53,301 bases of DNA from a virus (Duplodnaviria; Caudoviricetes), in IMG/VR virus record IMGVR_UViG_3300032297_000671, positions 1 to 53,301 of that record. One strand, written 5' to 3'. The notes beneath the pieces were generated by a model. That model saw only the letters and a program-made list of their open reading frames with translations, had not been told where the DNA came from and ran no database searches. A program made the position numbers and the translations under genes. Of this stretch, positions 822 through 37,547 are shown piece by piece (the first letter of the stretch is position 1; the number at the start of each line of letters is the position of its first letter).

Positions 822-1593
822 AAAATCAAAGTTAGTAGGTGGTTTTATTATAGGAACCTTTGTATCACTGTACCTAATGGTATCTGTGATCTCTACTATT
901 CACGTGATAGACTTTTTCAAACTTTCTAATCCGACTTGGCTGGCAGTTTCCCTTGCTATAGCTTTTGAAGTTGGTGCAGCGGCTTCTCTTGCTTCTTTGA
1001 TAGCTATGCATAAAATGAATAAGACTCTAGTTTGGATTCTATTCTTTTTACTTACTGGAATGCAAGCAATGGGTAATACTTACTATGCTTATGTAAATCT
1101 CCACGATTTTACTGCATGGAGTGAATTATTTGGATTGATCGAGGAAGATCTTATATTTCAAAAAAGAGTACTCTCGATAGTTAGTGGTGCTATATTACCT
1201 ATTGTAGCACTTGGATTTATTAAATCCCTAGTTGACTATATAAAACCTGAAGATGGTGATTTAGACGATGTGGTGAATAATAACGGTCCGGAAGAAGTAG
1301 AAAAAGGAGAGGACGATAAAGCATCTAAATATCCTGAATTTGATAACAATATACTCGATCTCCAGGATTCTAATGTTAATAAAATATATGAGCCATTAGA
1401 AACCACCAAATTTAATTACGAGACAGAGAACATATCTGAAGAAAAAGAAGTTCCTGCTAAAAGTGATGTAAGAGAGATCAAGATAGATGATAACTCAATT
1501 TCATCGGAGTTTGAAAATGCAAATTCAAACAAATCTTCCCACCAGAGGGTTACACTGCCTTCAGCTGGAGACTCAAATCCTACTAGATTATAA
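808..1593 (+). CDS. multi-pass membrane protein (about 4 TM) with acidic C-terminal tail
   Basis: Four hydrophobic segments in the first ~140 aa; the GTG start overlaps the upstream gene. Confidence 0.7.
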   Translation: MKTNKKSKLVGGFIIGTFVSLYLMVSVISTIHVIDFFKLSNPTWLAVSLAIAFEVGAAASLASLIAMHKMNKTLVWILFFLLTGMQAMGNTYYAYVNLHDFTAWSELFGLIEEDLIFQKRVLSIVSGAILPIVALGFIKSLVDYIKPEDGDLDDVVNNNGPEEVEKGEDDKASKYPEFDNNILDLQDSNVNKIYEPLETTKFNYETENISEEKEVPAKSDVREIKIDDNSISSEFENANSNKSSHQRVTLPSAGDSNPTRL

Positions 1594-2267
1594 TGACAGC
1601 AAACATTGGTGATGATTTAGATATTTATGGTGGTGGAGCATCAAATGGTGCCACTGGTTCTAACGCATTTTTTGGGCTTGGTACTGCAAACCCAGGACTT
1701 AAGACAGGGCAGACTGGTCCATTTACCACCCAATATACTCTTATAGCTAATACTGAGGGATCTTTAAGAAGAGTGAACCTTACGTTCTCTAATTTTAATG
1801 ACCCACATGAAGTTAGATTATTCAATACATCACTTAATGTAGTTTACCAAGCAACAACAGACGATAAGCTTGAGCTGGTTGACTTCTTTCATCCTATACA
1901 ATCATTCTCAGGATACCAAAAACAGACTTTTGTTATTGCACCCGATACATCAGTAAACCTAGATCCAGGTGACTTTGACACTACGTACGGTGAGGTTAGC
2001 TTGGTTATGGCGAAAGCTGATTATTATGCTGATGCAACGGAAGACCAAAGGGTTCTTTATTGGCATTACAATAGCGTGGAGCGATACGTCATGAGTGATT
2101 TCATGGTCCTATCGGGTCAAGTTAAGCCTTATGCTTCTTGGAAGGGATGGGAGGTTTATCCTGACCCTAATAACCAAGCAGGATACACAGGTGCTGCTAC
2201 TGGAGGATTTATCTTTTCGAATCCGACTGAGTATTCTGTAAAATTAACAATATTGACAGCGAGCTAA
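1593..2267 (+). CDS. putative virion structural protein (paralog of next gene)
   Basis: Gly/Thr/Asn-rich, beta-type composition. The C-terminus GGFIFSNP..SVKL.IL is shared with 2267..2812. Confidence 0.6.
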   Translation: MTANIGDDLDIYGGGASNGATGSNAFFGLGTANPGLKTGQTGPFTTQYTLIANTEGSLRRVNLTFSNFNDPHEVRLFNTSLNVVYQATTDDKLELVDFFHPIQSFSGYQKQTFVIAPDTSVNLDPGDFDTTYGEVSLVMAKADYYADATEDQRVLYWHYNSVERYVMSDFMVLSGQVKPYASWKGWEVYPDPNNQAGYTGAATGGFIFSNPTEYSVKLTILTAS

Positions 2268-2812
2268 TGGCAACAAGACCTATAATTTGTCCACCAGTCC
2301 CTGCAAGCGGATTTATCTTCTTTAAGGATAAATTTGTCTTAGAGGAAGATTATAACATGACGACTTTTTTTGATTTTAAAAATATGATCGATGTCGTTTC
2401 TGCCTATTCTAGATTGAGAGTAACTCTAGATGCTGGAAAAAGTATAAAGATTAGTCAAACCGATCTTGCTGATGAATATGGATACGTCAAATGGATAGCA
2501 GTAAAGGTTAAATATCCTGCTCCCATAAATCCTATCCTATATGGATCTCAGGTTCCTATTATACCAGGAGTCCCTACACCAACTAACGGAACACCGCAAG
2601 TTCAAAAGTACATAACGTGGACATATCAAGGAAAGACATATAACATAGGACAATTAATGATACTTTCTGGTCCTAGGGTTGGGTCAACTGATGCTGATCA
2701 GACTGGATGGAATTTAAGTAAAGATACATTCCCGTACAATAATGGGGGTATAACTTTTACTAATCCACATACTGATTTTTCCGTAAAATTAGAGATATTG
2801 GTGGCTAGATAA
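2267..2812 (+). CDS. putative virion structural protein (paralog of previous gene)
   Basis: Shares the motifs W.Y, M.LSG, GW and GG..F.NP...SVKL.IL with 1593..2267; TAATG translational coupling. Confidence 0.6.
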   Translation: MATRPIICPPVPASGFIFFKDKFVLEEDYNMTTFFDFKNMIDVVSAYSRLRVTLDAGKSIKISQTDLADEYGYVKWIAVKVKYPAPINPILYGSQVPIIPGVPTPTNGTPQVQKYITWTYQGKTYNIGQLMILSGPRVGSTDADQTGWNLSKDTFPYNNGGITFTNPHTDFSVKLEILVAR

Positions 2813-2874
2813 GGTCTAATTTTTCTTATTATATGTTGAATATATAAGAAAGAAGGTTTCAATCTCGCTAAAGA

Positions 2875-2882
2875 GATATATA
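2875..2882 (+). promoter_or_regulatory. putative late promoter GATATATA
   Basis: Intergenic, 23 nt before ATG 2906. A variant AATATATA lies at 2839-2846. Confidence 0.7.
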
Positions 2883-2905
2883 GAAAGCAAAAAAACTAAA
2901 GTAAA

Positions 2906-5518
2906 ATGGATTTACTAAATCAATTGAAAACTCTAAGAGATAATACTAATTCTCCTGAAGTGAGAACACTGTGTGAATCTCACATAAAAAACATCCAAGA
3001 AGGAACTGTTACTTTGAATGAATCTGAAATTATTGAATCGGTTAACGAGGCAAATAATTCTGCTTCGAATGAAGTAAATCCAATGGAAATGCTAAGAAAG
3101 CAAGAACTTGAAAAATCTAAATCAATGGCTTCTAGACTTATGGAGTCTTGGGGTGGTTTAGGATCTTCTTTTTCTAAAACTTCTGGTTCTTACGTTGACG
3201 GAAAAACTGAGGAGAAAAAAGACTTAGCTTCTAATATTTCTGAGAGCCTATCTCAATTTGCTGATAATGATCCTGCAGCTAAAGCATTTGTTCAGTCACA
3301 AGGAGTTAATAACTTAGGAGTTTATGAATCTATACTTTCTATAAAAGGACAAGGAATATATGAGCATCCTAATGTTAAGGTTCTTTGTGAGAAATACACA
3401 CACCTTATTAAGTCTCAAAATTTACCAGAGTTTCTTGTAGCTGAATCGTTTGCTTCAGAAATACAAAACTTTACATGGGACAATAAAGTAAAATCCATTT
3501 ACGAAAAAATTTCAGAGAGCTTAAATTCTCTTAAACCTGAGATTGAGGTTTCTAAAGCTTTATATTCGATCGAAAGAAATGCTGGATCTGATTTCTATTC
3601 TCCTGTTACAGAGTCATTGAACAAATGGCTAGTTTCTGAGAATAAATCGGTTGCTTTGTTATCAAAAGAATTGTCTAGATGGTCTTTCAATCCAGCTGTA
3701 AGAAATCTTGTTAATAGTCTTTCATTAATGGAAAGCTCTAATGAAAAATTAAGCATTCCTGTTAATAGTGGAAATTCTTCAGTAAGTAGATTATTCTCTC
3801 CAGTTTTAGTTGGTAGCGGTAAAACAACATTTACTATCGGAAGTAACGTTTTTGAAGGTAATGCAGAAGGTATCAGAAAGTTATCTAACAAGGAGATTTC
3901 AGAATTACCTAAAAACTTTATGAGCTTATTGGAGTCTTTCTATTCTCCGATGGTTAAGGTTAACGAGAGCGGTATCTCATACTTTATTGGCGATAAAGCT
4001 TACAAATTGGTAGGGGAAAACGATTCAGTTAACATTTACTCAAAGGGTAATAAAATTAAATTCGCTGATAATACACAATTGGCAAAACAGATCGCTCTTG
4101 AGATTTCTGGAACTTTTGGTATTAACGAATCAAAAGCAATTTCTGATTTGATCAACATCTACGAAAATTTTGATCAAATCGTAGAATTGGACTTTGCAAA
4201 AAGATTAGATTCTAAGGTTTATGAGGGAGCATCAGTTAATCTTATTAAATGGGAGAATAAGCTCTATTTGAACAAGATCAATTCTGCAATGAATGAGAAT
4301 TCTTTGTACGTTGTAAACGGAACTCAGGCTTCTTCTATGATTAAGGAGTTTTTAAAGTATGACATATCAGAAGGTCTTACCGAGTTTTTAGACGGAGAAA
4401 ATAGAATCAAATCTATCATGATTAACGATAGAGCTCAGATTATTGAAAACATCACTATCGTGGAAAAAGAGATTCAGAAAATCGAAGCTACGATGTCTCA
4501 AAATCCTGTATTTACTAACTCTAAAGAATTACAAAGAGCTAAATCTCTCTTAGAGCAGGAGCTTAATACATTGAGACAAAAATGGTCTGCTGTTAACGAA
4601 GAAATTGAGAAAATCGATTCAGGAGTTTCAGAAGTTCAAAATGTTAACGAGGATGAAAAATTTAATGTTGGAGACTACATTAAAGTTAAAGAGTCTGGAA
4701 ACACAGGAAAAATTATTTCTGTAGATTCTACTTCAGGATCATACACTGTATTGATGGATAATGGCAAAACAGGCGATTATAGAGTAGATGAAATCGTTGA
4801 TATCGAAGAAGCTTTAGCTGATGCAGGTAAAGAGAACGACGAAAAAAGCAAACCACAGGAAGATGAGGAGGAAATAAAGGAGAATGAAATGGCTTCTGCT
4901 CCAACAAAAGCCACTGCCGGTTCTAAAGATATGACTCCTGCTGCTACTATGAAAGCAAATACAACTGCTGCTCCATCTTCGAAAGAGCAAGAAGTTACTA
5001 GCAAAAAAGATGTAGAAAATCTAGATCACGCTAACCTTGAAGAAGCACCTGAGGGTAAAGAAAAAGAAACTAAGTTCGAGGTTAAATTGAAAGATTCGTT
5101 AGTTGATAAGATTGGATACAATGTTAATGAATCAGATCTTGAAAAAACAAATCCTGAACTTGCTGAAGCACCAGGAGGAAAAAGCGATGCTGATTATAAA
5201 GTAGAGATTTCTATCCCTAAAGCTAATAACCCAGAAGCTAGTGATAAAGATCAAGATTTAGCTGATGCACCTGAATCTGGTGTATCTAAGGTAAAGGCTA
5301 ATACAGATCAGAATTTAGCTACCGCTCCAGGTGGAGAATCTGAAGCTGATTATAAAGTTGAAGTTACTATTCCTAAGGCAAATAAGCCAGAAGCTAATGA
5401 TGAAGATCAAAACTTAGCTGATGCACCTGCAGCTGGAACTGAAGCTCAGACTAACGTTGAGGTTAATTCTGAAATGGGATATAACATTGACGAGAGCGAA
5501 GAGTCAAAAAAAAACTAA
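2906..5518 (+). CDS. large putative head/core protein with coiled coil, KOW/SH3-like domain and acidic C-terminal repeats; probable -1 frameshift extension to 5691
   Basis: Many [LIV]xE(S) sites (LNES, VNEA, ISES, VNES, INES) and a KOW/SH3-like segment FNVGDYIKVKESGNTGKIISVD. The ORF ends in A AAA AAC TAA. Confidence 0.7.
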   Translation: MDLLNQLKTLRDNTNSPEVRTLCESHIKNIQEGTVTLNESEIIESVNEANNSASNEVNPMEMLRKQELEKSKSMASRLMESWGGLGSSFSKTSGSYVDGKTEEKKDLASNISESLSQFADNDPAAKAFVQSQGVNNLGVYESILSIKGQGIYEHPNVKVLCEKYTHLIKSQNLPEFLVAESFASEIQNFTWDNKVKSIYEKISESLNSLKPEIEVSKALYSIERNAGSDFYSPVTESLNKWLVSENKSVALLSKELSRWSFNPAVRNLVNSLSLMESSNEKLSIPVNSGNSSVSRLFSPVLVGSGKTTFTIGSNVFEGNAEGIRKLSNKEISELPKNFMSLLESFYSPMVKVNESGISYFIGDKAYKLVGENDSVNIYSKGNKIKFADNTQLAKQIALEISGTFGINESKAISDLINIYENFDQIVELDFAKRLDSKVYEGASVNLIKWENKLYLNKINSAMNENSLYVVNGTQASSMIKEFLKYDISEGLTEFLDGENRIKSIMINDRAQIIENITIVEKEIQKIEATMSQNPVFTNSKELQRAKSLLEQELNTLRQKWSAVNEEIEKIDSGVSEVQNVNEDEKFNVGDYIKVKESGNTGKIISVDSTSGSYTVLMDNGKTGDYRVDEIVDIEEALADAGKENDEKSKPQEDEEEIKENEMASAPTKATAGSKDMTPAATMKANTTAAPSSKEQEVTSKKDVENLDHANLEEAPEGKEKETKFEVKLKDSLVDKIGYNVNESDLEKTNPELAEAPGGKSDADYKVEISIPKANNPEASDKDQDLADAPESGVSKVKANTDQNLATAPGGESEADYKVEVTIPKANKPEANDEDQNLADAPAAGTEAQTNVEVNSEMGYNIDESEESKKN
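5159..5440 (+). repeat. intragenic direct repeat, 156-bp (52-aa) period, 2 copies
   Basis: LAEAPGGKSDADYKVEISIPKANNPEASDKDQDLADAP versus LATAPGGESEADYKVEVTIPKANKPEANDEDQNLADAP. Confidence 0.85.
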
Positions 5519-5691
5519 AAAAAATACTTAGTAGAGTTTGGTCGTTTGCACCATCAAGCTCTGATCAAAACGAAAGTCCAAAGCCTTTCGTTGATGATTT
5601 AAAAGATCGAATGAGCGTTGCACCTGATGGTAAAGAACCAGAGGACGCAACGCTCATTTCTTCTGATGAGGATTCTGAAGATCGTAAATAG
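5506..5691 (+). other. putative -1 frameshift/slippage site and 58-codon extension
   Basis: An A9 run gives the slippery heptamer A_AAA_AAC just before TAA. The -1 frame is open 5515-5691 (LKKILSRVWSFAPSSSDQNESPKPFVDDLKDRMSVAPDGKEPEDATLISSDEDSEDRK). Confidence 0.6.
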
Positions 5692-5699
5692 ACTAGACC

Positions 5700-5730
5700 G
5701 AAACTATCCTCGAGGTTTGGGGTAAGAATA
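5700..5730 (+). promoter_or_regulatory. putative ECF-like (middle) promoter GAAAC-N17-GTAAGAATA
   Basis: The same spacing recurs at 12853, 17339, 31886, 35992 and 38896. Confidence 0.7.
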
Positions 5731-5752
5731 CTAAGAAATATTTCTATAAACT

Positions 5753-6112
5753 ATGGCAAAAGAATATGTTAGAAATGCGGATTTAATGGCCGCTATCCTT
5801 GAATGTAAGGAAAAGGGCGAATTAACTCCGCGTACTATAAAGATGTTCACGCTTATGATAAACGGAATCTCTAAAAAAATGGCTTATAGAGATCCTGAAG
5901 ATAAGGAAGATTGCATGGCTTTTGCTATGGAGGACTTAGTAAAATATTGGAATAGATTTGATCCAACAAAATCTAATAACCCATTCTCGTACTATACACA
6001 AATTGCAAAGAATGGATTTGCGAAAGGATGGAAAAAAATACATCCACCAAAAGCACCAAAAACAATACCTTTTTCTTACATCACTGGTGAGGATAATTCG
6101 TACAACGTTTAA
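5753..6112 (+). CDS. gp55: T4 gp55-like sigma factor for late transcription
   Basis: YVRN..L and RFDPTKSNNPFSYYTQIAKNGF resemble the gp55 family signature (NFDP.KS.NPFAYFTQI); it sits next to head genes. Confidence 0.85.
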   Translation: MAKEYVRNADLMAAILECKEKGELTPRTIKMFTLMINGISKKMAYRDPEDKEDCMAFAMEDLVKYWNRFDPTKSNNPFSYYTQIAKNGFAKGWKKIHPPKAPKTIPFSYITGEDNSYNV

Positions 6113-6114
6113 GT

Positions 6115-6600
6115 ATGACAGATATCAAGAAAATAAAACCCAATGGGGATTATAAATCTGGACTCTATGTACCAAAAAACCCTGAAAAGTATATTGGTGA
6201 CGTCCATAATATAATTTGTAGATCCTCGTGGGAATTTAGATTCTGTAGATATTGTGATTCGAACGAGAGAATACTCAAATGGAGTTCAGAACCTTTAAAA
6301 ATTCCTTATTATAATCCGCTCGATAAGAAGGAGCATGTTTATAACGTTGATTTTTATATACAGGTTTTACAGGATGATGATAATAAGCAAGACTGGATAA
6401 TAGAGATAAAACCAGAATCACAATTTAAAAGACCCATCCTGGAAGGTAATGCTACTTTACAAAAGCTAAAATCATACAACCATAAAATGCAAGTCTGGAT
6501 TACTAACCAGGCAAAATTCAAATATGCTAAAGAATGGGCATCTGCGAGAGGATACAAATTTGGTGTGGTTGATGAAAATTTTCTATTTAAAAGCAAGTGA
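6115..6600 (+). CDS. gp4: head completion nuclease (T4 gp4-like, TnsA-type fold)
   Basis: Motifs PKNPEKYIGD, RSSWE, WSSE, IPY, H.Y.VDF, IEIKP and N.AK...A..W. Confidence 0.88.
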   Translation: MTDIKKIKPNGDYKSGLYVPKNPEKYIGDVHNIICRSSWEFRFCRYCDSNERILKWSSEPLKIPYYNPLDKKEHVYNVDFYIQVLQDDDNKQDWIIEIKPESQFKRPILEGNATLQKLKSYNHKMQVWITNQAKFKYAKEWASARGYKFGVVDENFLFKSK

Positions 6601-7199
6601 AAAACTTTGCTGAGCAAATAAAGGATTATCAGAACGGAGCTCAATCAATTAGTTCCCTGATACAGAAAACAAATTCTCTTTTTGAAGAAAAATATTTTTC
6701 ACCAAACGGAAAGGGTGAACCTTTAAGTGGTAATTATATACCAGGAAAAATATACACTGGAGAATATCTAACCAAGACAGATCTTTCCGATCGTATTAAA
6801 TTCATAGACAGAAGACCTGTATTTCTTTTTATTTCTGAGGAGAAAGTTAATGGTGAAAATATATTAAAAGGTCTTGATCTTAATATAGTTCCTAATGAAT
6901 ATAGAGCTAAAATTTTGGGATCCTATTTTGATAATTTTATAGGTAAGATTTCAGCGAATTTAAAAAATCCACCATCTTTACAGGAGCCTATATTGATAAA
7001 ATCGGTTTACCTTTCGTCCATCTTTGGTAATGATGGATATAAATTTGCTATGAATGGATTTAAAAAATCATATATGAAGTCTGTTAAAATCATATCTTAT
7101 GATGATTGGTCTAAAATACCTTTCTTAACAGATACACAAATACAAGGACTGACTGTTTCGGCGATATATAATCAATATAAGACGAAATTAAATGCTTGA
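6597..7199 (+). CDS. gp2: DNA end protector protein (T4 gp2-like)
   Basis: IPGKIY..Y, DRRP and GLDLNIVP...R resemble gp2 motifs (PG.MY.F.Y, D.FP, GLNLHYLP...R); adjacent to gp4. Confidence 0.6.
   Translation: MKNFAEQIKDYQNGAQSISSLIQKTNSLFEEKYFSPNGKGEPLSGNYIPGKIYTGEYLTKTDLSDRIKFIDRRPVFLFISEEKVNGENILKGLDLNIVPNEYRAKILGSYFDNFIGKISANLKNPPSLQEPILIKSVYLSSIFGNDGYKFAMNGFKKSYMKSVKIISYDDWSKIPFLTDTQIQGLTVSAIYNQYKTKLNA
7163..7170 (+). promoter_or_regulatory. putative late promoter for the portal genes
   Basis: GATATATA at the 3' end of the gp2-like gene, 63 nt before the portal ATG. Confidence 0.55.
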
Positions 7200-7233: not shown

Positions 7234-8862
7234 ATGGCAGGATTCACAGATAACCCACAAGGAAATCCCATATTTCAAAGAATTAAGGATTCAGTAAAAT
7301 CCCTGAGTAATTTTGGATTAAGGTACGGTGATATGGTCATTAGGAACTCCCAGGCTATCGGTCAGACCGAAGCTGAGTTCATGAAGAAAGGTCCTATCGA
7401 AGATGATACAATGTTGTATTCACTAGGTAGACAAGATACAACAACAAAGCAATTTATTGGTTATTTTGATAAGGATTACGCAGGTAAGAGAGATTACCTT
7501 AGAAAGTTTTCACTAAATCCTGAAATCGAATATATTCTGGATACTGTTTGTGACGAGTCCATAACTTACGATTCCTATAATTTTTTTGCATACCCAGCTT
7601 TTCTTAATCTAACCAATATAAAAGAAAAGGTTATAAATAGAATTGACTCAAACTACAAGAAATTGTATGATATGTTTGGGTTTAGCGACGATAGCACTGC
7701 TTGGCAATATTTCAGGCAGCTTCTTGTTGACGGATTTATCGCATTTGAGATTATTTACGATGACAAGGGTAAAAATATCATAGGATTTAAAGAACTTGAT
7801 GCAACGACATTAATGCCATCTGTAGAAAAACAGAAGGATGGATCTTTTCTTAATGTTTGGTATCAATATCCTAAGGACATTAATAAGAAGAGAATGCTCT
7901 ATGATTCTCAGATAGTCTATATCTCATATGCTAAGGGAAATACAGTTTCCAGGGTTTCTTATGCTGAAAGATTGATTAGACCTTATAACATATTAAGAAT
8001 CATAGAGTATACCCGTGTTATATGGTCGGTAATGAACGCTTCATTCAGGATGAAGATGACAGTTCCTATCGGATCAAGATCACCTCAGAAGTCAATGCAA
8101 ACCTTAGGTGAATTGATGAGTATCTATAAAGAGGATATAAGATTTAATGACGATAGTGGAGAACTTACTGTAGACGGTAGACCGAAAATACAGTTCTACA
8201 AAAATTATCTTATGCCTTCAGGTGTAAATGGTACACCAACTATCGAGCCTTTAAACACTGCGGGTCCTAATCTTAATGATCCCGCTCCATTAGCATATTT
8301 CTTTGACAAATTAGCACAGGAATCAAAAATTCCTTTTTCTAGATTCCAAGGACCGGATGGAGGATCTATAGGTCAATATTCAAATTCTGCAGAAGGACTT
8401 GACAAGGAAGAAATCAGATTTGCAAAATTTGTAACGAGATTGAGATCTATATTTCAGGATATCCTTGTTAAGCCACTATGGATCCAGATGTGTAAGGATT
8501 TTCCGGAGCTTGAAAAGGATTATCTTTTTAAAAGTCAACTTGGATTAACTTTTGTTTCTGATAACCCATTTAGGGTAAATCAAGAAATAGAGACCATGAC
8601 AAAAAAGAAAGAGTCTATTGATAGTCTTTATGGGTTAACTGATGAAGATGGTAAGCCATTCTTTTCTTTAGCTTATCTTATAGAGAGCTATTTGGGTATG
8701 ACTGCTGATGATATTAAGGCTAATGAGGAGGCAAAGAAAAAAAGAAAAGAAGAATTAAAGAAGGAAGGTAAAAGTGAAGAAGCTGCTGCACCTGCTGAGG
8801 GATCTGCAGAACCTGCGGAACCTGCAGAAACACCCGAAACAGAAACACCTCCAGCTGAATAA
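7234..8862 (+). CDS. gp20: portal protein, paralog A (T4 gp20-like)
   Basis: PEIE..LD.VCDESI, FRQLLVDG, SYAERLIRPYNILRIIE...VIW, SKIPFSR and EEIRFAKFV.RLR..F are gp20 family motifs. Confidence 0.88.
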   Translation: MAGFTDNPQGNPIFQRIKDSVKSLSNFGLRYGDMVIRNSQAIGQTEAEFMKKGPIEDDTMLYSLGRQDTTTKQFIGYFDKDYAGKRDYLRKFSLNPEIEYILDTVCDESITYDSYNFFAYPAFLNLTNIKEKVINRIDSNYKKLYDMFGFSDDSTAWQYFRQLLVDGFIAFEIIYDDKGKNIIGFKELDATTLMPSVEKQKDGSFLNVWYQYPKDINKKRMLYDSQIVYISYAKGNTVSRVSYAERLIRPYNILRIIEYTRVIWSVMNASFRMKMTVPIGSRSPQKSMQTLGELMSIYKEDIRFNDDSGELTVDGRPKIQFYKNYLMPSGVNGTPTIEPLNTAGPNLNDPAPLAYFFDKLAQESKIPFSRFQGPDGGSIGQYSNSAEGLDKEEIRFAKFVTRLRSIFQDILVKPLWIQMCKDFPELEKDYLFKSQLGLTFVSDNPFRVNQEIETMTKKKESIDSLYGLTDEDGKPFFSLAYLIESYLGMTADDIKANEEAKKKRKEELKKEGKSEEAAAPAEGSAEPAEPAETPETETPPAE

Positions 8863-8873
8863 AATAAAACGAT

Positions 8874-10478
8874 ATGGCCGGATTTCTAGATAACGTAGCG
8901 GAAAGAACATTCTTAGGTAACCTGTACAAAAACCTATCCAGAATAGGTAAGTTTGGTATGGAGTACCAAGATATGGTTATTAAAAATTCACAGGCAATTG
9001 GTTCGACAGAATCTAATTTTTTTAATGAGCAAGGGAGCGGATTTACTGAGAATGATGCTTTTAGATGGACTCTTGGATATCAAGATACCCAAATTAGAAA
9101 ATACATTGCTTATTTTGATAAGGATTATGTAGGTAAGAGGGATTTTCTTCGAAAATTTTCCTTGAATGGTGAGATTGATTTTATTCTTGATACAATTACC
9201 GATGATTCTGTAAATTACGATGATAAGAATTTCTTTTCTTATCCATCACTAGCAAACATAGATCTTAAGAATAATGTTGTAGATAAGTTGGACGAAACGT
9301 ACAGGAATCTCTATATGCTTTTCGGTTTCCAGCAGAGTATTCTTGCCTGGCAATATTTTAGACAATTCCTGATAGACGGTTTTCTTGCATTTGAGATTGT
9401 ATATTCTACCGATGGTAAAAAAATTGTAGGTTTTAAAGAGCTCGATGCTACTTCACTTCAGCCAGCAACAGAAAAACAACCTAACGGTGAATTCCAGCAA
9501 ATTTGGATTCAATACCCGAATGATAATAAGATGACCAGAAGGTTAAAAGCTGAACAGATTATTTATATTTCTTATGCTAAGGGTAACACAGTCTCTAGAG
9601 TTAGCTATGTAGAAAGATTAATAAGATCATACAATATCCTACGTATAATGGAAAATACTAGGGTTATTTGGAATGTTATGAATGCCTCTTATCGTTTGAA
9701 ATTTGTCATCCCTGTTGGTAGTCAATCACAGCAGAAAGCAATGCAAACCCTTGGGCAGTTAATGTCTATCTACAAGGAGGAAATAGATCTGAATGATTTT
9801 TCCGGAGAATTAACAGTAAACGGTAGACCAAAGGTTCAATTTTATAAGAATTATTTGTTTCCTGAGAAAGATGGACAATCTCCAGATATTTCGACCCTGG
9901 ATCCTAATGGTCCGGATTTTAATGTGATGGAGAACGTTGTTTATTTCTATAATAAACTTAAACTAGATTCAAAAATACCTTATGCTAGATTTGCTTTTAG
10001 AGGGGGTACACCAGCAAATTATCAGATAGCCATAGATCAGCTTGAAAGGGATGAAATAAGATATGAGAAATTCTTAACTAGACTTAGATCAATCTTCCAA
10101 GAAATACTCGTTAAACCTCTTTATATTCAGATGTGTTTGGATTTTCCTGAATTATCAAAGGATAGATCATTTAAGGCTAATTTAGGTCTGGATTTTGTAA
10201 GAGAGAATTTGTTTGAAGAATTAATACAGCTTCAGAATTATACCAAGAGAAGCGATTTTATTACTGCTCTTGGAGGAATGAACCAGAAAATAGGAGAAGC
10301 TGAAACCCCTTACTTTGATAAAGAATTTCTAATAAAAAGATTCCTTGGTATTACTATGGATGAGTTTAGGAAGAATGAAAAGTATAAGGAAAACGAAGCT
10401 AAGGAAGCTAAAAAGGCTGAAAAAGAAGGTGGTGCTACTGAAGAAGGTGGCGGTGGTGGAGAAAGCTTTACTCTTTAA
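8874..10478 (+). CDS. gp20: portal protein, paralog B (T4 gp20-like)
   Basis: Colinear with paralog A throughout: YFDKDY.GKRD.LRKFSLN, FRQFLIDG, YISYAKGNTVSRVSY.ERLIR, SKIPYAR and DEIRYEKF..RLR. Confidence 0.88.
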   Translation: MAGFLDNVAERTFLGNLYKNLSRIGKFGMEYQDMVIKNSQAIGSTESNFFNEQGSGFTENDAFRWTLGYQDTQIRKYIAYFDKDYVGKRDFLRKFSLNGEIDFILDTITDDSVNYDDKNFFSYPSLANIDLKNNVVDKLDETYRNLYMLFGFQQSILAWQYFRQFLIDGFLAFEIVYSTDGKKIVGFKELDATSLQPATEKQPNGEFQQIWIQYPNDNKMTRRLKAEQIIYISYAKGNTVSRVSYVERLIRSYNILRIMENTRVIWNVMNASYRLKFVIPVGSQSQQKAMQTLGQLMSIYKEEIDLNDFSGELTVNGRPKVQFYKNYLFPEKDGQSPDISTLDPNGPDFNVMENVVYFYNKLKLDSKIPYARFAFRGGTPANYQIAIDQLERDEIRYEKFLTRLRSIFQEILVKPLYIQMCLDFPELSKDRSFKANLGLDFVRENLFEELIQLQNYTKRSDFITALGGMNQKIGEAETPYFDKEFLIKRFLGITMDEFRKNEKYKENEAKEAKKAEKEGGATEEGGGGGESFTL

Positions 10479-23350: not shown

Positions 23351-23358
23351 GATATATA
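23351..23358 (+). promoter_or_regulatory. putative late promoter GATATATA
   Basis: Intergenic, 25 nt before the protease ATG. Confidence 0.72.
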
Positions 23359-23383
23359 AACTTAAATAAACGATAGTCAACCA

Positions 23384-25396
23384 ATGGGAAATAATCCAAA
23401 TTCATTGAACGAGAATCTATTCTTTATATTAGAAAAGCAAAATGACAATCTTGCCGTTTCTAAAGTAGATTCCGATTCAGGTAAAGAATACATTCTTCAG
23501 GGAATAGCTGCTCAGTTTGGCAAGGAAAACAATAACAATAGAATCTATGAGGAAGGTGAATATCTTCCGCATCTTGACTATTTAAAGGACAAGATCAAAC
23601 AAAAAAGACTCCTAGGAGAATTGGATCACCCAGAAAAGTTTGATGTTTCTTTAAAAAATATTTCTCACGTTATCGACGATTTAGAATACGATAAAGACGG
23701 GAGAGTTCTTAAGATCAAGGTAAAATTGTTAGATACACCTGCTGGTCAGATAGCTAAAAAATTAGTTGATGCTGGAATTCCTTTAAGTATTAGTTCTAGA
23801 GCCGCTGGTCAAGTTGGACCAGATAAAAAGGTTCAAATCAAGAAGATTTTTACGTATGATTTAGTTGCTGATCCTGGTTTTCAAGATGCTCAGCTAGAGA
23901 GAGTTTATGAGTCTGCAGACTTTGTTACGTTCGTTGATCACCAAAAAAATTCAATAATAAACAGTCTTGAATGCGTAAATGAATCATTTGGATTAGAAAA
24001 TGAAAATTCATTGAAGATATATAAAGTTGAAAATAACGAGGAATTCGAAAAACTCTTTAAGTCAGAAGAAAAAAATAAATCCGCTACTATGGAGCAAAAA
24101 GAATATGTGACTGCTGATGAACTCAATAAATATTCTATCTTTTTAAAGAAGAAAATGGATGAGCTTGAGGCACAAATAAATGAAATGAAAAACGATGCTT
24201 CAGTATCTGAAGCTTCAACTGTTACAACTACTGACACTTCTGCTTTAGAAGAAAGGGTAGCTAAGCTTGAGAAATATTCAGAGTATCTTGCTGAAAATCT
24301 AGACGGTGCAATTAAATATGGTGAATATCTTGCTGAGAATCTAGACAACAGCATCACTTACTCTAAGTATCTTGCTGAAAATCTTGATAAGAACATCTCT
24401 TATGCTAAGTATCTAGCTGAGAATGTTGATAAGTCTATTTCATATTCAGAGTATGTTGCTGAGAATGTTGATAAGGCTATCGACTATTCTAAATATTTAG
24501 CTGAGAAAGTTGATGATGGTATTCAATACACAGAATATGTTGCTGAGAACCTTGATAAAAATATCGCTTATTCTGAGTATCTTGCAGAAAACCTAGATAA
24601 AGGTATCGCTTATTCTGAGTATCTTGCAGAAAACCTAGATAAAGGTATTGCTTATTCAGAATACATCGCAGAAAAATTAGATCAAGGAATTCACTTCACT
24701 GAATACCTTGCTGAAAACGTAAACAAGTCGGTATCTTATTCTGAATACATCGCAGAAAACTTAAATAAGGGTATCGCTTATTCAGACTATCTAGCTGAAA
24801 AGCTAAATGGTAACATCGCAGAAACTGAGTCTATCTCAGAGAGCGTAAAAAATGGTAAATCTGTTAACTTGAACGAAAGTGCAAGAGAAAATGCAGAAAT
24901 TATCGCTAACACAGAATTGGTAGAGTCTGGTTTTGCTGGAGATTATAATTCAATCTCAGGCAAAATTGACGCTCTAATTGAATCAGTCAAGACGCAAAAG
25001 ACTGAGGAGAATATAAACGAGGCAAGAACGAAAGTTCAGCCAACTGCTCAAACACAAAAAGCAGATGAGGCATTGAATGAAGGAATTGAATCTAATGTTA
25101 AGTCATCAGGTTACAAGTTTATCGATCAGATGCCAGAGGAATATGCTCAGGTTTGGGAATCCTTAAATGAAAACCATAAGCAATCTATTGTTGCTCAGGC
25201 TTCTTTCTACAATTTGGAAACTCAATATCAGATCAATAACTTCTGGTCTACTAGACAACTTGATACAAAAACAATTGGACTTCAAAAACTTCAAGAAAGC
25301 CAAGAAACACCAGAACCAACAAAAGAAAGCTTATCACCTGCATATTCTAACGACTATGTACAGTGGGTAGCTAAGTCTCTTGAAGGTAAGTTTTAA
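23384..25396 (+). CDS. gp21: prohead protease (T4 gp21-like) fused to scaffold/core domain
   Basis: N.NNRIY, LGELDHP, SHVI, LLDTPAG, ISSRAAG and YDLVADPGF..A, followed by a long coiled-coil/repeat C-terminal region. Confidence 0.9.
   Translation: MGNNPNSLNENLFFILEKQNDNLAVSKVDSDSGKEYILQGIAAQFGKENNNNRIYEEGEYLPHLDYLKDKIKQKRLLGELDHPEKFDVSLKNISHVIDDLEYDKDGRVLKIKVKLLDTPAGQIAKKLVDAGIPLSISSRAAGQVGPDKKVQIKKIFTYDLVADPGFQDAQLERVYESADFVTFVDHQKNSIINSLECVNESFGLENENSLKIYKVENNEEFEKLFKSEEKNKSATMEQKEYVTADELNKYSIFLKKKMDELEAQINEMKNDASVSEASTVTTTDTSALEERVAKLEKYSEYLAENLDGAIKYGEYLAENLDNSITYSKYLAENLDKNISYAKYLAENVDKSISYSEYVAENVDKAIDYSKYLAEKVDDGIQYTEYVAENLDKNIAYSEYLAENLDKGIAYSEYLAENLDKGIAYSEYIAEKLDQGIHFTEYLAENVNKSVSYSEYIAENLNKGIAYSDYLAEKLNGNIAETESISESVKNGKSVNLNESARENAEIIANTELVESGFAGDYNSISGKIDALIESVKTQKTEENINEARTKVQPTAQTQKADEALNEGIESNVKSSGYKFIDQMPEEYAQVWESLNENHKQSIVAQASFYNLETQYQINNFWSTRQLDTKTIGLQKLQESQETPEPTKESLSPAYSNDYVQWVAKSLEGKF
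24089..25396 (+). CDS. putative nested in-frame scaffold protein (435 aa, MEQKEYVT...)
   Basis: Internal GATATATA at 24016-24023 and an A-rich leader AAAAAAATAAATCCGCTACT precede an in-frame ATG at the protease/scaffold boundary. Confidence 0.5.
   Translation: MEQKEYVTADELNKYSIFLKKKMDELEAQINEMKNDASVSEASTVTTTDTSALEERVAKLEKYSEYLAENLDGAIKYGEYLAENLDNSITYSKYLAENLDKNISYAKYLAENVDKSISYSEYVAENVDKAIDYSKYLAEKVDDGIQYTEYVAENLDKNIAYSEYLAENLDKGIAYSEYLAENLDKGIAYSEYIAEKLDQGIHFTEYLAENVNKSVSYSEYIAENLNKGIAYSDYLAEKLNGNIAETESISESVKNGKSVNLNESARENAEIIANTELVESGFAGDYNSISGKIDALIESVKTQKTEENINEARTKVQPTAQTQKADEALNEGIESNVKSSGYKFIDQMPEEYAQVWESLNENHKQSIVAQASFYNLETQYQINNFWSTRQLDTKTIGLQKLQESQETPEPTKESLSPAYSNDYVQWVAKSLEGKF
24272..24817 (+). 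repeat. 13 tandem 42-bp (14-aa) repeats, consensus YSEYLAENLDKGIA
   Basis: Directly visible in both the protein and the DNA. Confidence 0.95.
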
Positions 25397-25419: not shown

Positions 25420-27114
25420 ATGAAACTAATTAACGAAGCAGAAATCTTCGAAACCTGGTCTCCTATCATCGAGCAGAAGGCTGGAATCGCAGATACTGAA
25501 AAGAAACAGTGGCTTTCTAAATATTGTCACTACCACTCATTGAACGAATCAGCTGGTGCTTATTCTTCTTTGAACGTTGTTAACGGTATGGGTGCAGTTA
25601 CACCTCCTACCTTCCCAACTAACACCAACGCTAACGCTGGTTTTTATAACTCATCTTGGCAAGGATCTGGCGATAAATTCCCTTCACTTCTTCCATTGGC
25701 TATTCAGGTAGCTGCGAAGACTGTAGGTTTTGACATCGTTCCAGTTATCCCTATGTCAGGTCCTACTGGCGTATTGTCATACCTTGACTACGTTTACGCT
25801 GGTGGTAAAATCAGCCCAACTTCTGTTGGTGACACAGCTGCTGATGCTTTAGCTGCTGCTCCTGCAATGATCAAATTGCAAATCACTTCACTTGCTTCAG
25901 GATATCCTGCATCATTTGCGGTTGGTACTACTTACTACATCACTAACGCTTCTTCAGCTGGTGCATACATCACTACTAAATTCGTAGGTCTATCAAGAAT
26001 TGATGGTTACCCTATCTTTAGAGTAGAAGGTGTTACTGCTGGTGAGTCTATCGCAGCTGTTATCGACGGTGGTGCTACTAAAGTTGGTACTTCAATCAAC
26101 GGATCTCAAGCTGGTACTACTACTGCTTCTGCAGCATTAGTTAAAGCTTTAGAAGACCACATCCAAGGTTTCTCTGGTGCTGGTTTCCAAAACAGCGATA
26201 ACTGGCAAGGTCCATTCGTTGACGGTACTAAAACTTACAACCCAATGCTTAGAGCATACGGTGAGAGTAACTACTACCAGTCAATGGGTCTTTCGACTTT
26301 CACTAAGTTCGTTGAGGCTGACACTTTCCAAGTAGCTGCTTCTGTAACTACGGAGCAAATCCAAGACCTTAACAAACAATTCGGTATCGACGTTATCTCA
26401 ATGATCGAGAACGCATTGGTTAATGAGGTTTCACAAGCTATCAACAAGCACATCCTTTCTAGAGGATTCGCTCTTGGATGGTCTAACCACTACGACTTCT
26501 ACACTACAGAAGGACAAAACTTGAACCTTAACCTTGTAATTGGTGGTACTGCAGGTTCATACACTATCCCTTCATACGTAGGTAAAGATGACACTGGTTT
26601 AACTCTTGCTGGAACTGCTGGTCCTGCAACAGGAACTTACGAGAACTTGTCAACTCTTCAGAGAAGATTATTCTCAAGAATTCTTGCTGCTGCTAACGTA
26701 GTTGCTAACAGAGGTAGAAGAGGTCCTGCTAACTTCATCGTTACTAACGCTAACGTTGCAAGTGCATTGCAAGATATCTCTCAGTTCACTTTCGCTCCTT
26801 TCTCTAACACGTTGACTCAGAACAACGGTACATTATACCCTGTAGGTTCACTTGCTGGTATGACTGTTTACGTTGATCAGAACATGACGTTCTCTGATAC
26901 GAGAGTATTGGTAGGTAGAAAAGGTGGTGATGACGAACCAGGACTTAAGTTCATGCCTTACATGATGGCTGAGTCTATTCAGACAATCTCTGAAGGTACT
27001 ATGTCACCTAAGATCGCAGTTAAATCTCGTTACGCTTTAGTAGAAGCTGGTTTCCACCCAGAAACTATGTATTTCTGCTTCAACGTTAACTTGCCTGCTG
27101 GAGGTATCTCCTAA
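25420..27114 (+). CDS. gp23: major capsid protein (T4 gp23-like, HK97 fold)
   Basis: LPLA..VAAKTVGFDIVPV.PMSGPTG, EQIQDL....GID, RGRRGPANFIV, G.LAG.TVYVD, FMPY and P..AVKSRYAL. Codon usage is strongly biased, as expected for a highly expressed gene. Confidence 0.93.
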   Translation: MKLINEAEIFETWSPIIEQKAGIADTEKKQWLSKYCHYHSLNESAGAYSSLNVVNGMGAVTPPTFPTNTNANAGFYNSSWQGSGDKFPSLLPLAIQVAAKTVGFDIVPVIPMSGPTGVLSYLDYVYAGGKISPTSVGDTAADALAAAPAMIKLQITSLASGYPASFAVGTTYYITNASSAGAYITTKFVGLSRIDGYPIFRVEGVTAGESIAAVIDGGATKVGTSINGSQAGTTTASAALVKALEDHIQGFSGAGFQNSDNWQGPFVDGTKTYNPMLRAYGESNYYQSMGLSTFTKFVEADTFQVAASVTTEQIQDLNKQFGIDVISMIENALVNEVSQAINKHILSRGFALGWSNHYDFYTTEGQNLNLNLVIGGTAGSYTIPSYVGKDDTGLTLAGTAGPATGTYENLSTLQRRLFSRILAAANVVANRGRRGPANFIVTNANVASALQDISQFTFAPFSNTLTQNNGTLYPVGSLAGMTVYVDQNMTFSDTRVLVGRKGGDDEPGLKFMPYMMAESIQTISEGTMSPKIAVKSRYALVEAGFHPETMYFCFNVNLPAGGIS

Positions 27115-36705: not shown

Positions 36706-37431
36706 CTATTCATTTTCAGTAGCACCTTGACTCATCTCTCTCATAAACAATTCTTTCGCTATCTTGGTTATGACTGAATTATTGTTGAAATCCTCCGATA
36801 TTTCCATTACTGTTACCCTAGGCTGAGTTTTATTATCAATTTTAAGGTAATCTATGACTTCGTGGATAATAAACTCGTACGACAAAGAAAAATAGCAATT
36901 TAGCATCGGAACCTGCTTCATAATTATGCTTTTCTCTCCGACATTCGTTTTACCAGATTGCCACCAATATGGTATTATTTCATCAGTTGCCATATTTCTT
37001 AATATCAATATACCATAATCATTACTTCTAGAGTATTCACTTGTTACTTCGAAGGTTCTTATCCTATTTTCGATATTTTTCCATAGATCCATTCCAAGAT
37101 CGGCATATTTATATAGTATATCTAGAGATGAATCCAGTATGGACAATGCCTCGTTCGATTCGTCTTCAGATAGATTACATTCTTTTATTATATCTAGCAA
37201 CTCTCTTGTCGATTGTGTTAGATATTTAGATGGGATAATATCTTTTTCCTCTAGAAGACATTTTACGTGGGATAGCTCTTTAATCATTGAAAATATTTTT
37301 TTAACCGGATAGTAAATATTTTCTTTCTCAATTTCTTTATTAACACTTTTTAAAAAGTCCAATAGGATATACTGCTTATGCTCCAGGTCTATTGGATGCT
37401 GTATAAACCATGTTTTCTTGAGATTTTTCAT
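36706..37431 (-). CDS. hypothetical protein (only credible minus-strand gene)
   Basis: It fills the gap between + strand genes. The likely start MKNLKKTWF has an A-rich leader and an AATATATA element (37456-37463, minus strand). Confidence 0.75.
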   Translation of the reverse strand: MKNLKKTWFIQHPIDLEHKQYILLDFLKSVNKEIEKENIYYPVKKIFSMIKELSHVKCLLEEKDIIPSKYLTQSTRELLDIIKECNLSEDESNEALSILDSSLDILYKYADLGMDLWKNIENRIRTFEVTSEYSRSNDYGILILRNMATDEIIPYWWQSGKTNVGEKSIIMKQVPMLNCYFSLSYEFIIHEVIDYLKIDNKTQPRVTVMEISEDFNNNSVITKIAKELFMREMSQGATENE

Positions 37432-37513
37432 GGTGTTGAATTTTTTTATATGTCTTATATATTGAACTAATATTTTTTCATTCGAGACTAAAAAAGAAGC
37501 TGATCTTAGTTTT

Positions 37514-37521
37514 GATATATA
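37514..37521 (+). promoter_or_regulatory. putative late promoter GATATATA (divergent from the minus-strand element)
   Basis: 26 nt before ATG 37548. Confidence 0.68.
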
Positions 37522-37547
37522 ATACATAAAAATAGTGTACAAGAAAA

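Follow-up and report, generated by a model that had tools for sequence, protein, structure and literature searches.

Two isoforms of one protein may be produced from a single gene either by slippage of RNA polymerase or by ribosomal frameshifting. Both routes are represented in dnaX, whose tau and gamma products arise by slippage on a run of 9 in Thermus thermophilus and by -1 frameshifting on A_AAA_AAG in E. coli (PMC5009743, PMC3711429). On 9 A's or T's, such as the run in Thermus dnaX, slippage of bacterial RNA polymerase in vivo is highly efficient (PMC5009743), and sites of transcriptional realignment are typically homopolymers of 8 or more (PMC3711429). In Shigella spa13 and related type III secretion genes, slippage gives 25-30% of C-terminally extended product (PMC5009743). 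C-terminally extended capsid or tail proteins are produced by frameshifting in T3, in T7 gene 10A/10B, in Lactobacillus phage A2 and in the Listeria phages A118, A500 and PSA (PMC5009743). IS1 frameshifts on A_AAA_AAC with no stimulator established in the account of PMC4066793. Here we describe a locus of this kind in a DNA stretch of 53,301 nucleotides (nt) from a virus of the Duplodnaviria, class Caudoviricetes (positions 1 to 53,301 of IMG/VR record IMGVR_UViG_3300032297_000671), referred to in its full length as the window. A gene for a protein of 870 amino acids (aa) very probably undergoes programmed recoding of some kind at a run of nine A's (A9), which would give isoforms of 870 and 928 aa.

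The gene occupies positions 2906-5518 on the + strand and ends in TCA AAA AAA AAC TAA, exactly as a first-pass annotation made from the sequence had given it. The A9 run, the putative recoding site, lies at 5506-5514 (+ strand) and is the only A or T run of nine or more in the 53-kb window, where 3.7 A runs and 1.3 T runs would be expected under a first-order Markov model. Two heptamers overlap in phase at this place on the + strand, A_AAA_AAA within the run (5506-5512) and A_AAA_AAC, which ends on the base following it (5509-5515); the 0-frame stop TAA (5516-5518, + strand) abuts this base. Translated in the -1 frame from 5509, the sequence gives 60 residues without a stop up to TAG at 5689-5691, 58 of them from codons past the run. 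The extension (5515-5691, + strand; sense codons 5515-5688), hereafter the tail, would bring the shifted product to 928 aa, compared with 870 aa for the unshifted one. The tail begins with a basic hydrophobic stretch, ends in an acidic one and has two x-A-P motifs; it contains SFAP, QNES and MSVAPDGKE. The first-pass annotation had placed the tail in one of the longest unannotated gaps, and 5519-5752 (234 nt) is indeed the largest stretch of the window without a + strand open reading frame (ORF), except for 36706-37547, where a - strand ORF is located. It had also recognized the vocabulary of the main protein in the tail. In this regard, the motif [LMFIVWY][AS]x[AST]P is present in 5 copies at residues 662-841 of the 870-aa protein and in 2 further copies in the tail, compared with 4 in all 50 remaining ORFs of the window together. 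A second run, A8 (5517-5524), begins one base past the A9-C and is the joint second-longest A run of the window; among the relatives this place varies (GAAAAATA, AGAAGATA and similar).

The locus shares features with each of the described systems. Like dnaX, it would produce isoforms with a common N-terminal part and differing C-terminal regions from a poly-A site (PMC5009743, PMC3711429). Unlike dnaX, it codes for an unrelated phage protein with a short extension (49-77 aa among relatives) that is predicted to be disordered. The E. coli dnaX site has Shine-Dalgarno and stem-loop stimulators, none of which is conserved here. IS1 insA-insB' offers the same heptamer, A_AAA_AAC, in a bacterial setting and, in the account cited above, with no established stimulator (PMC4066793). 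The IS1 shift fuses a DNA-binding protein to a transposase, whereas at the present locus the run is always of 9-10 and the stop abuts it. The run in IS1 is shorter than nine.

As in the T7 10A/10B type, the putative recoding takes place near the 3' end of a late phage gene and would yield a C-terminally extended form, which in the known cases is minor beside a major one (PMC5009743). The genes of that type code for major capsid or tail proteins, and several of their extensions are Ig-like domains; the 870-aa gene, in contrast, is not that of the capsid protein (25420-27114), belongs to no known family and combines a motif-repeat tail with a homopolymer site. In view of the frameshift-extended capsid proteins of T3, T7, A2 and the Listeria phages (PMC5009743), the novelty claimed in the first-pass annotation, recoding in a head gene rather than in the usual tail chaperone, does not stand. 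In lambda G/GT, a late phage gene likewise has a conserved -1 shift close to its end, by which the ratio of two products is set (PMC5009743). The lambda gene is flanked by tail genes and encodes a chaperone, and no similarity in sequence or position was found. The lambda heptamer is G_GGA_AAG. Tail assembly chaperones of the G/GT type are small and adjoin the tape measure gene, whereas the present protein has 870 aa and no chaperone family match, and the neighbours of its gene encode a gp55-like sigma factor, a gp4-like head completion protein and portals. The spa13 gene, finally, is a plasmid-borne cellular secretion gene in which slippage was shown by experiment, whereas here we infer it.

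The conservation of the arrangement was assessed in 154 related loci, of which IMG/VR contributed 74 and metagenome contigs 80 (155 with the window), with homologue identity as low as 37-45%. Thirteen of the 155 loci are cut before the 3' end of the gene and 142 reach that end; collapsing identical contexts left 87 unique ones, 84 of the shift type and 3 fused. The shift arrangement, in which the run and one further base are followed directly by a 0-frame stop while the -1 frame stays open over the tail, is present in 139 of the 142 loci, and the remaining 3 are fused. Homologues thus retain both the slippery site and the extension, the pairing for which the first-pass annotation had suggested looking. 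Among the shift-type loci the run is A9 in 134 and A10 in 5; by unique context it is A9 in 80 of 84 and A10 in 4, and it is never shorter. The base after the run is C in 58 of these contexts, T in 15 and G in 11, and a 0-frame stop is adjacent in all 84 (TAA in 74, TGA in 5 and TAG in 5). The heptamer A_AAA_AAN is in phase and the direction of the shift is -1 in every one of the 84, with the classic bacterial heptamer A_AAA_AAG in 11. The codon preceding the run is TCA, TTA, CTA, GTA, CAA or GAA, its third base always being A. Across the 84 contexts the entropy is zero at each of the nine A's and at the T of the stop, whereas the flanking positions all vary (0.3-1.95), and the Leu or Val codon that overlaps the stop in the -1 frame has only A or G as its third base, by which the 0-frame stop is preserved.

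A FastTree phylogeny of 79 of the 87 unique contexts, those with a locus reaching the conserved domain, shows at least 14 changes of the preceding codon and none of its third base, the ninth A; other third positions, both upstream and downstream, underwent 7-25 changes on the same tree. Elsewhere in the 798 kb of related loci there are 16 A runs of nine or more, compared with 131 at the recoding site, and 5 T runs of that length where 21.6 would be expected. Among the matches listed by the protein search, all 120 of 120 homologues end in KKN, and gene callers therefore truncate the protein everywhere. In the phage collection, megablast found no match and tblastn one distant record only, a homologue of 631 aa that lacks both the repeats and the recoding site.

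Several observations indicate that the tail is translated as part of the protein. The first 69 loci gave 36 unique tails, and in 114 close pairs of these the pairwise ratio of nonsynonymous to synonymous substitution (dN/dS) is 0.11 in the -1 frame, compared with 1.84 and 2.26 in the other two frames. Together with the 139 of 142 loci that keep the arrangement, this agrees well with the proposal of the first-pass annotation that two isoforms arise by ribosomal frameshifting or transcriptional slippage. The 81 complete unique tails comprise 49-77 codons, each with at least two 'AP', and their mean charge is +2.0 over the first 12 residues and -4.8 over the last 20. Upstream of the tail the -1 frame is closed by a stop within 3-18 codons, and in none of the 84 contexts does an ATG, GTG or TTG occur between this stop and the tail. 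The tail therefore cannot start independently, and the shift would have to take place in the run or right beside it; in the most tightly closed contexts it must occur within the run.

The three fused loci provide a natural demonstration that the tail belongs to the 870-aa protein. In L134 (run at 3684-3692), L142 (3984-3992) and L144 (3972-3980), all of them long contigs from the metagenome scan, the run is followed by AAC CCY AGT and by the same tail in frame; they differ from the shift type by TA to CCY, with the length of the run unchanged, and they represent one change of architecture on the tree. In these loci the A9 is retained and the -1 frame stops 3-5 codons beyond it. By analogy with dnaX, the fused lineages may continue to produce both forms, with the two exchanging roles; as in dnaX, orthologues occur in both arrangements (PMC5009743, PMC3711429), here 139 split and 3 fused, the run being kept. 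A shift efficiency in the tens of percent would be in keeping with such easy switching between split and fused forms. Searching with the tail alone returned no match among proteins of 106-2000 aa, which is weak evidence. Among proteins of 33-105 aa, the same search returned P0123 (79 aa, from a 2480-nt contig), in which KKK and a tail-like sequence follow in one frame after about 20 residues resembling the protein ends of clade B, one of three clades of relatives (A, B and C). P0123 could be a fused or an A10 variant; it is ambiguous, its DNA not having been found in IMG/VR.

Three explanations other than recoding can be weighed against these data. Homopolymers are a classic source of indel errors, and for the window alone a sequencing error in a continuous ORF, or a recent frameshift mutation that left a pseudogene tail, would have been a natural suspicion. 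The comparison with relatives refutes it: the arrangement recurs, across many assemblies, in 139 independent loci, the stop is invariant, and the tail is under purifying selection in homologues down to 37-45% identity, so that we consider an artefact or decay exceedingly improbable. Similarly, the in-frame ATG of the window (the Met of MSVAP) might suggest that the tail is a small gene of its own. The conserved block extends upstream of this Met, which is Leu in some lineages; none of the 84 contexts offers a start codon between the -1 stop and the conserved start of the tail; and in three loci the tail is fused to the main protein, all of which makes a separate gene equally hard to credit. 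The conservation in 139 loci, the selection on the tail, the absence of its own start and the fused forms thus set aside assembly error, pseudogene and separate small gene alike. The last explanation is phase variation in the DNA itself, in which slippage at replication would generate A10 genomes and the population would switch between short-only and long-only forms. Homopolymers are generally prone to replication slippage (PMC3711429), and P0123 carries KKK and tail in a single frame. However, no plain one-base length change that would put the tail in frame was seen across the 142 loci: where the run is A10 (5 loci), the arrangement is still that of the shift type, and what sets the 3 fused loci apart is TA to CCY and not the length of the run. 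The A10 assembly error that the first-pass annotation had asked to be checked is likewise not met with in any assembly. In addition, contigs from four sequencing runs span the A9 run without an indel, though contigs drop rare variants; among the runs listed for 3500-6500 there was none of RNA. Because of the lack of plain in-frame length changes, we rate phase variation as very unlikely.

A further element proposed in the first-pass annotation was a stem, possibly part of a pseudoknot, that would stimulate the shift. The hairpin of 10 base pairs (bp) does exist at 5533-5542/5553-5562 (+ strand), and the spacer of 17 nt between heptamer and stem had been given correctly. It is part of the minimum-energy fold of 5516-5600, which at -23 kcal/mol (z -4.66) was equalled in none of 200 shuffles. 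Its role as a stimulator finds no such agreement: the pairs of the stem are kept in 3-14 of the 14 clade A sequences and are mostly broken in clades B and C, and alifold gave no consensus structure upstream or downstream of the run, either overall or within any of the three clades. The spacer positions +3 to +12 are highly variable. An upstream hairpin seen by eye in clade B (GAAGGT/ACCTTC) is lost in relatives and was not supported by alifold. No stimulatory structure was found at 5-9 nt, and a Shine-Dalgarno-like stimulator upstream is unlikely; such features are usual at ribosomal sites and not obligatory, since accepted sites such as IS1 also have no established stimulator. The conserved signal is not the stem of the window, whose distance of 17 nt from the heptamer would in any case be out of the ordinary.

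The same signal appears to recur within the family. A profile search of 1.84 billion representatives returned 346 clusters with E<=0.001, 100 of them with E<=1e-30; of the best 150 of the 346 clusters, 22 have KK[NK] at the C-terminus and others KKK with one or two further residues. In a distant subfamily (L157-L178 and L182), 23 of 33 IMG/VR loci, corresponding to 15 unique contexts, carry NNA AAA AAA AAG. The distance to the 0-frame stop is 0 codons in 6 of these loci, 1 codon in 8 and 2 codons in 9, and the adjacency of the stop is therefore not a general requirement. The -1 ORF here is much longer, from 156 to more than 200 codons. L157, for example, consists of a 0-frame part of 520 aa (97-1659) and a -1 part of 219 aa (1647-2306); as in the window, a gp55-like and a gp4-like gene come next, and a relative with a single ORF, P0195, aligns to both parts (E 3e-75 and 5e-7). 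The A9+G site of this subfamily has no conserved RNA structure. The same bare A9 signal is thus apparently used at a second position in the family. We had aligned the second run by eye to the inside of an SH3-like module of the window protein, but BLASTP to that protein did not confirm this. In L158 (position 3362) and L174 (position 4040), another A9+G run occurs downstream of the first and, by its position, within the long -1 ORF. A single further locus, L156 (ORF 1441-3822, -1 ORF 3813-4058), ends in GCA AAA AAA AAG TAA and has an 80-aa -1 ORF of different, helical-looking sequence; a resemblance of the latter to the C-termini of the longer relatives P0134-P0143 was not confirmed by BLASTP (E 1.8). 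IMG/VR scans with P0117 and P0199 yielded no relative.

As to which machine slips, we favour a mechanism in which transcription dominates, to which we assign a probability of about 0.55. RNA polymerase, assumed to be that of the host as in T4, would slip on the nine A's and add one A to part of the transcripts, and the A10 transcripts would then be read into the tail by ordinary translation. Most product would end at TAA 5516-5518 and have 870 aa, whereas a fraction would continue for 58 codons in the -1 frame to reach 928 aa, thereby gaining a basic hydrophobic segment, two further x-A-P copies and an acidic end. The ribosome may contribute -1 slips at the same run, such that both machines may play a part. 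The length of the run argues for slippage, as it is never below 9, whereas a single heptamer needs only seven bases. So does its ninth A, unchanged at the synonymous site of a codon that otherwise changes. A homopolymer of about 8-9 or more that is conserved as a nucleotide element is what slippage calls for, and this is what the relatives display. Likewise in keeping with slippage are the absence of conserved RNA structure or spacer on either side of the run, the A9+G of the distant subfamily, placed elsewhere in the protein with its stop 0-2 codons off and no conserved structure, the retention of A9 in the fused lineages in a dnaX-like reversal of the arrangement, and the rarity of long A runs in the rest of the related loci.

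Other features weigh against this reading and are accounted for more directly if the ribosome is responsible. In that case, -1 frameshifting would make all or nearly all of the long form, the tRNAs re-pairing on A_AAA_AAC or A_AAA_AAA while the following stop slows decoding, and RNA structure would not be needed. A single conserved shift direction predicts, as a rule of thumb, ribosomal frameshifting (PMC3711429), and the direction is -1, with the heptamer in phase, throughout the 84 contexts, and -1 also in all 23 A9-bearing loci of the second subfamily; orthologues that differ in direction or phase, a heuristic sign of slippage and not a requirement, were not encountered. The 0-frame stop abuts the heptamer in every context; selection at a four-fold site of the other frame maintains it in this place, which a ribosomal signal would explain directly. 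The -1 ORF is conserved under purifying selection, as such a signal would predict. Some lineages, amounting to the 11 unique contexts and all 23 A9-bearing second-subfamily loci, have A_AAA_AAG, and IS1 is a proven case of frameshifting on A_AAA_AAC for which no stimulator is established in the source cited (PMC4066793). The ninth A could serve the first heptamer, A_AAA_AAA, and two overlapping heptamers would explain the nine A's. On the other side, the spacer is variable, no stimulator is conserved at 5-9 nt by alifold, and the stem of the window is 17 nt away and unconserved. These genes also lack Shine-Dalgarno motifs, a Shine-Dalgarno stimulator being unlikely because only 1 of 45 gene starts in the window is Shine-Dalgarno-like. 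The known bacterial ribosomal sites have six A's before the final base. The slippage sites named in PMC5009743 and PMC3711429, in contrast, have runs of 9 or 10. Although one heptamer suffices, the run is never 7 or 8, and in the second subfamily a stop 0-2 codons away shows no general need for adjacency. We therefore regard a purely or mainly ribosomal origin of the long form as a serious possibility, though one from which we lean away.

The product of the gene could not be assigned to a known family. The search against PHROG matched no family, Pfam matches lay only below the curated cut-offs, and a sequence-profile search of the PDB gave 0 matches; capsid protein, protease and portals are encoded by other genes of the window, and the label 'head protein' of the first-pass annotation is unsupported. 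An AlphaFold2 model built from 32 homologues (mean predicted local distance difference test score, pLDDT, of 64) suggests a helical N-terminal part (1-276), beta domains (291-470), a coiled-coil hairpin (492-571), a Tudor/SH3-like module (591-632) and a disordered acidic repeat region (643-870), the latter with pLDDT 30-40 in the full-length model. Foldseek against the PDB gave as its only informative result a Tudor/KOW/SH3-like match to the small module at 591-632, with a template modelling (TM) score of 0.74 on the target, and VIA-align against representative chains found only coiled-coil hairpins (residues 481-576). In BFVD only uncharacterized proteins were matched, including those of the Tenacibaculum phages PTm1 and pT24, and in the ESM Atlas one viral cluster at 0.76. 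Fold relatives from cultured phages are thus Tenacibaculum phage proteins only, all of them uncharacterized. The tail is predicted to be a disordered, low-complexity motif repeat of 49-77 aa among relatives.

The phage from which the window derives is an uncultured myovirus distantly related to T4, of which the window covers a fragment. The motif GATATATAR has 11 matches, all on the + strand (507, 2875, 7163, 16268, 19848, 20605, 23351, 24016, 27177, 34750 and 37514), compared with 2.68 expected, and none of 100 shuffles reached 11. Most copies lie just upstream of gene starts, e.g., those of the first portal (7163-7171) and the protease (23351-23359), and the copy GATATATAG at 2875-2883 (+ strand) is located 23 nt upstream of the ATG of the 870-aa gene. 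The motif is probably a late promoter, the analogue of that of T4. The T4 late promoter motif is TATAAATA. Since the motif precedes the 870-aa gene as well as portal and protease genes, the former is classed, on this evidence, as a late gene. The next gene downstream is that of a T4 gp55-like late sigma factor (5753-6112, + strand; phrog_234, E 1.3e-14). Two tandem T4 gp20-like portal genes are located at 7234-8862 and 8874-10478 (Pfam Portal_T4, E 2.3e-60 and 7.8e-59). The prohead protease (23384-25396, 670 aa) matches over residues 16-296, with about 370 C-terminal aa outside the match, and the major capsid protein (25420-27114) matches phrog_28442 and phrog_138. In addition, the window codes for a gp4-like head completion protein, DNA ligase, clamp loader and exonuclease. 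The leaders of its genes are A-rich. A Bacteroidota host is likely, given the gene starts without Shine-Dalgarno motifs and the fold relatives in Tenacibaculum phages.

Among the related loci, 137 have a complete end, and 132 of these have a gp55-like gene in the same orientation after the tail; in 116 of the 132 it starts 21-123 nt past the stop of the tail. In the window the two are separated by a spacer of 61 nt (5692-5752, + strand), which contains GAAAC (5700-5704) and the palindrome CCTCGAGG (5708-5715); the same block of GAAAC and CCTCGAGG follows the stop of the tail in the clade A relatives. In the other clades, hairpins with T runs, followed by GAAA(C/T), were seen by eye at this place. 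The block may represent a terminator together with the promoter of the gp55-like gene. According to the first-pass annotation the tail would end just before the next promoter; scanning the spacer region for sigma-70 promoters and terminators gave 0 sites, whereas a conserved GAAAC-containing spacer does come after the tail.

The finding is known in kind, since both recoded C-terminal extensions of late phage proteins and isoforms made by poly-A slippage have been described; what appears to be new is their occurrence in an uncharacterized gene family, and a limited literature search found no publication that apparently describes this recoding. It is distinguished by a run that is strictly invariant, by fused forms occurring in nature and by a second site within the family. 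Gene callers cut the protein short in every record, a point of relevance for annotation. With more than 100 independent sequences, fused controls and a second site, the family is a well-sampled natural case for the question of polymerase versus ribosome at poly-A, and its probable host group is one in which ribosomes seldom rely on Shine-Dalgarno pairing. Tentatively, and with more doubt than conviction, we suggest a wider picture for this T4-like clade, which lacks Shine-Dalgarno motifs and probably infects Bacteroidota. In it the bare A9 would be a general recoding device free of stimulators, polymerase slippage at tens of percent would set the isoform ratio, and the device would have been installed in at least two positions of one family, to add a motif tail of 50-60 aa or a C-terminal part of more than 200 aa, with switches between split and fused forms keeping the run as in dnaX. 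For the biology of the phage, the locus points to a late protein, which we take to be abundant, with a multivalent x-A-P repeat region and with both forms under selection. Our working guess is that the tail would alter the valency or the reach of this multivalent short-motif region in a fixed fraction of the molecules.

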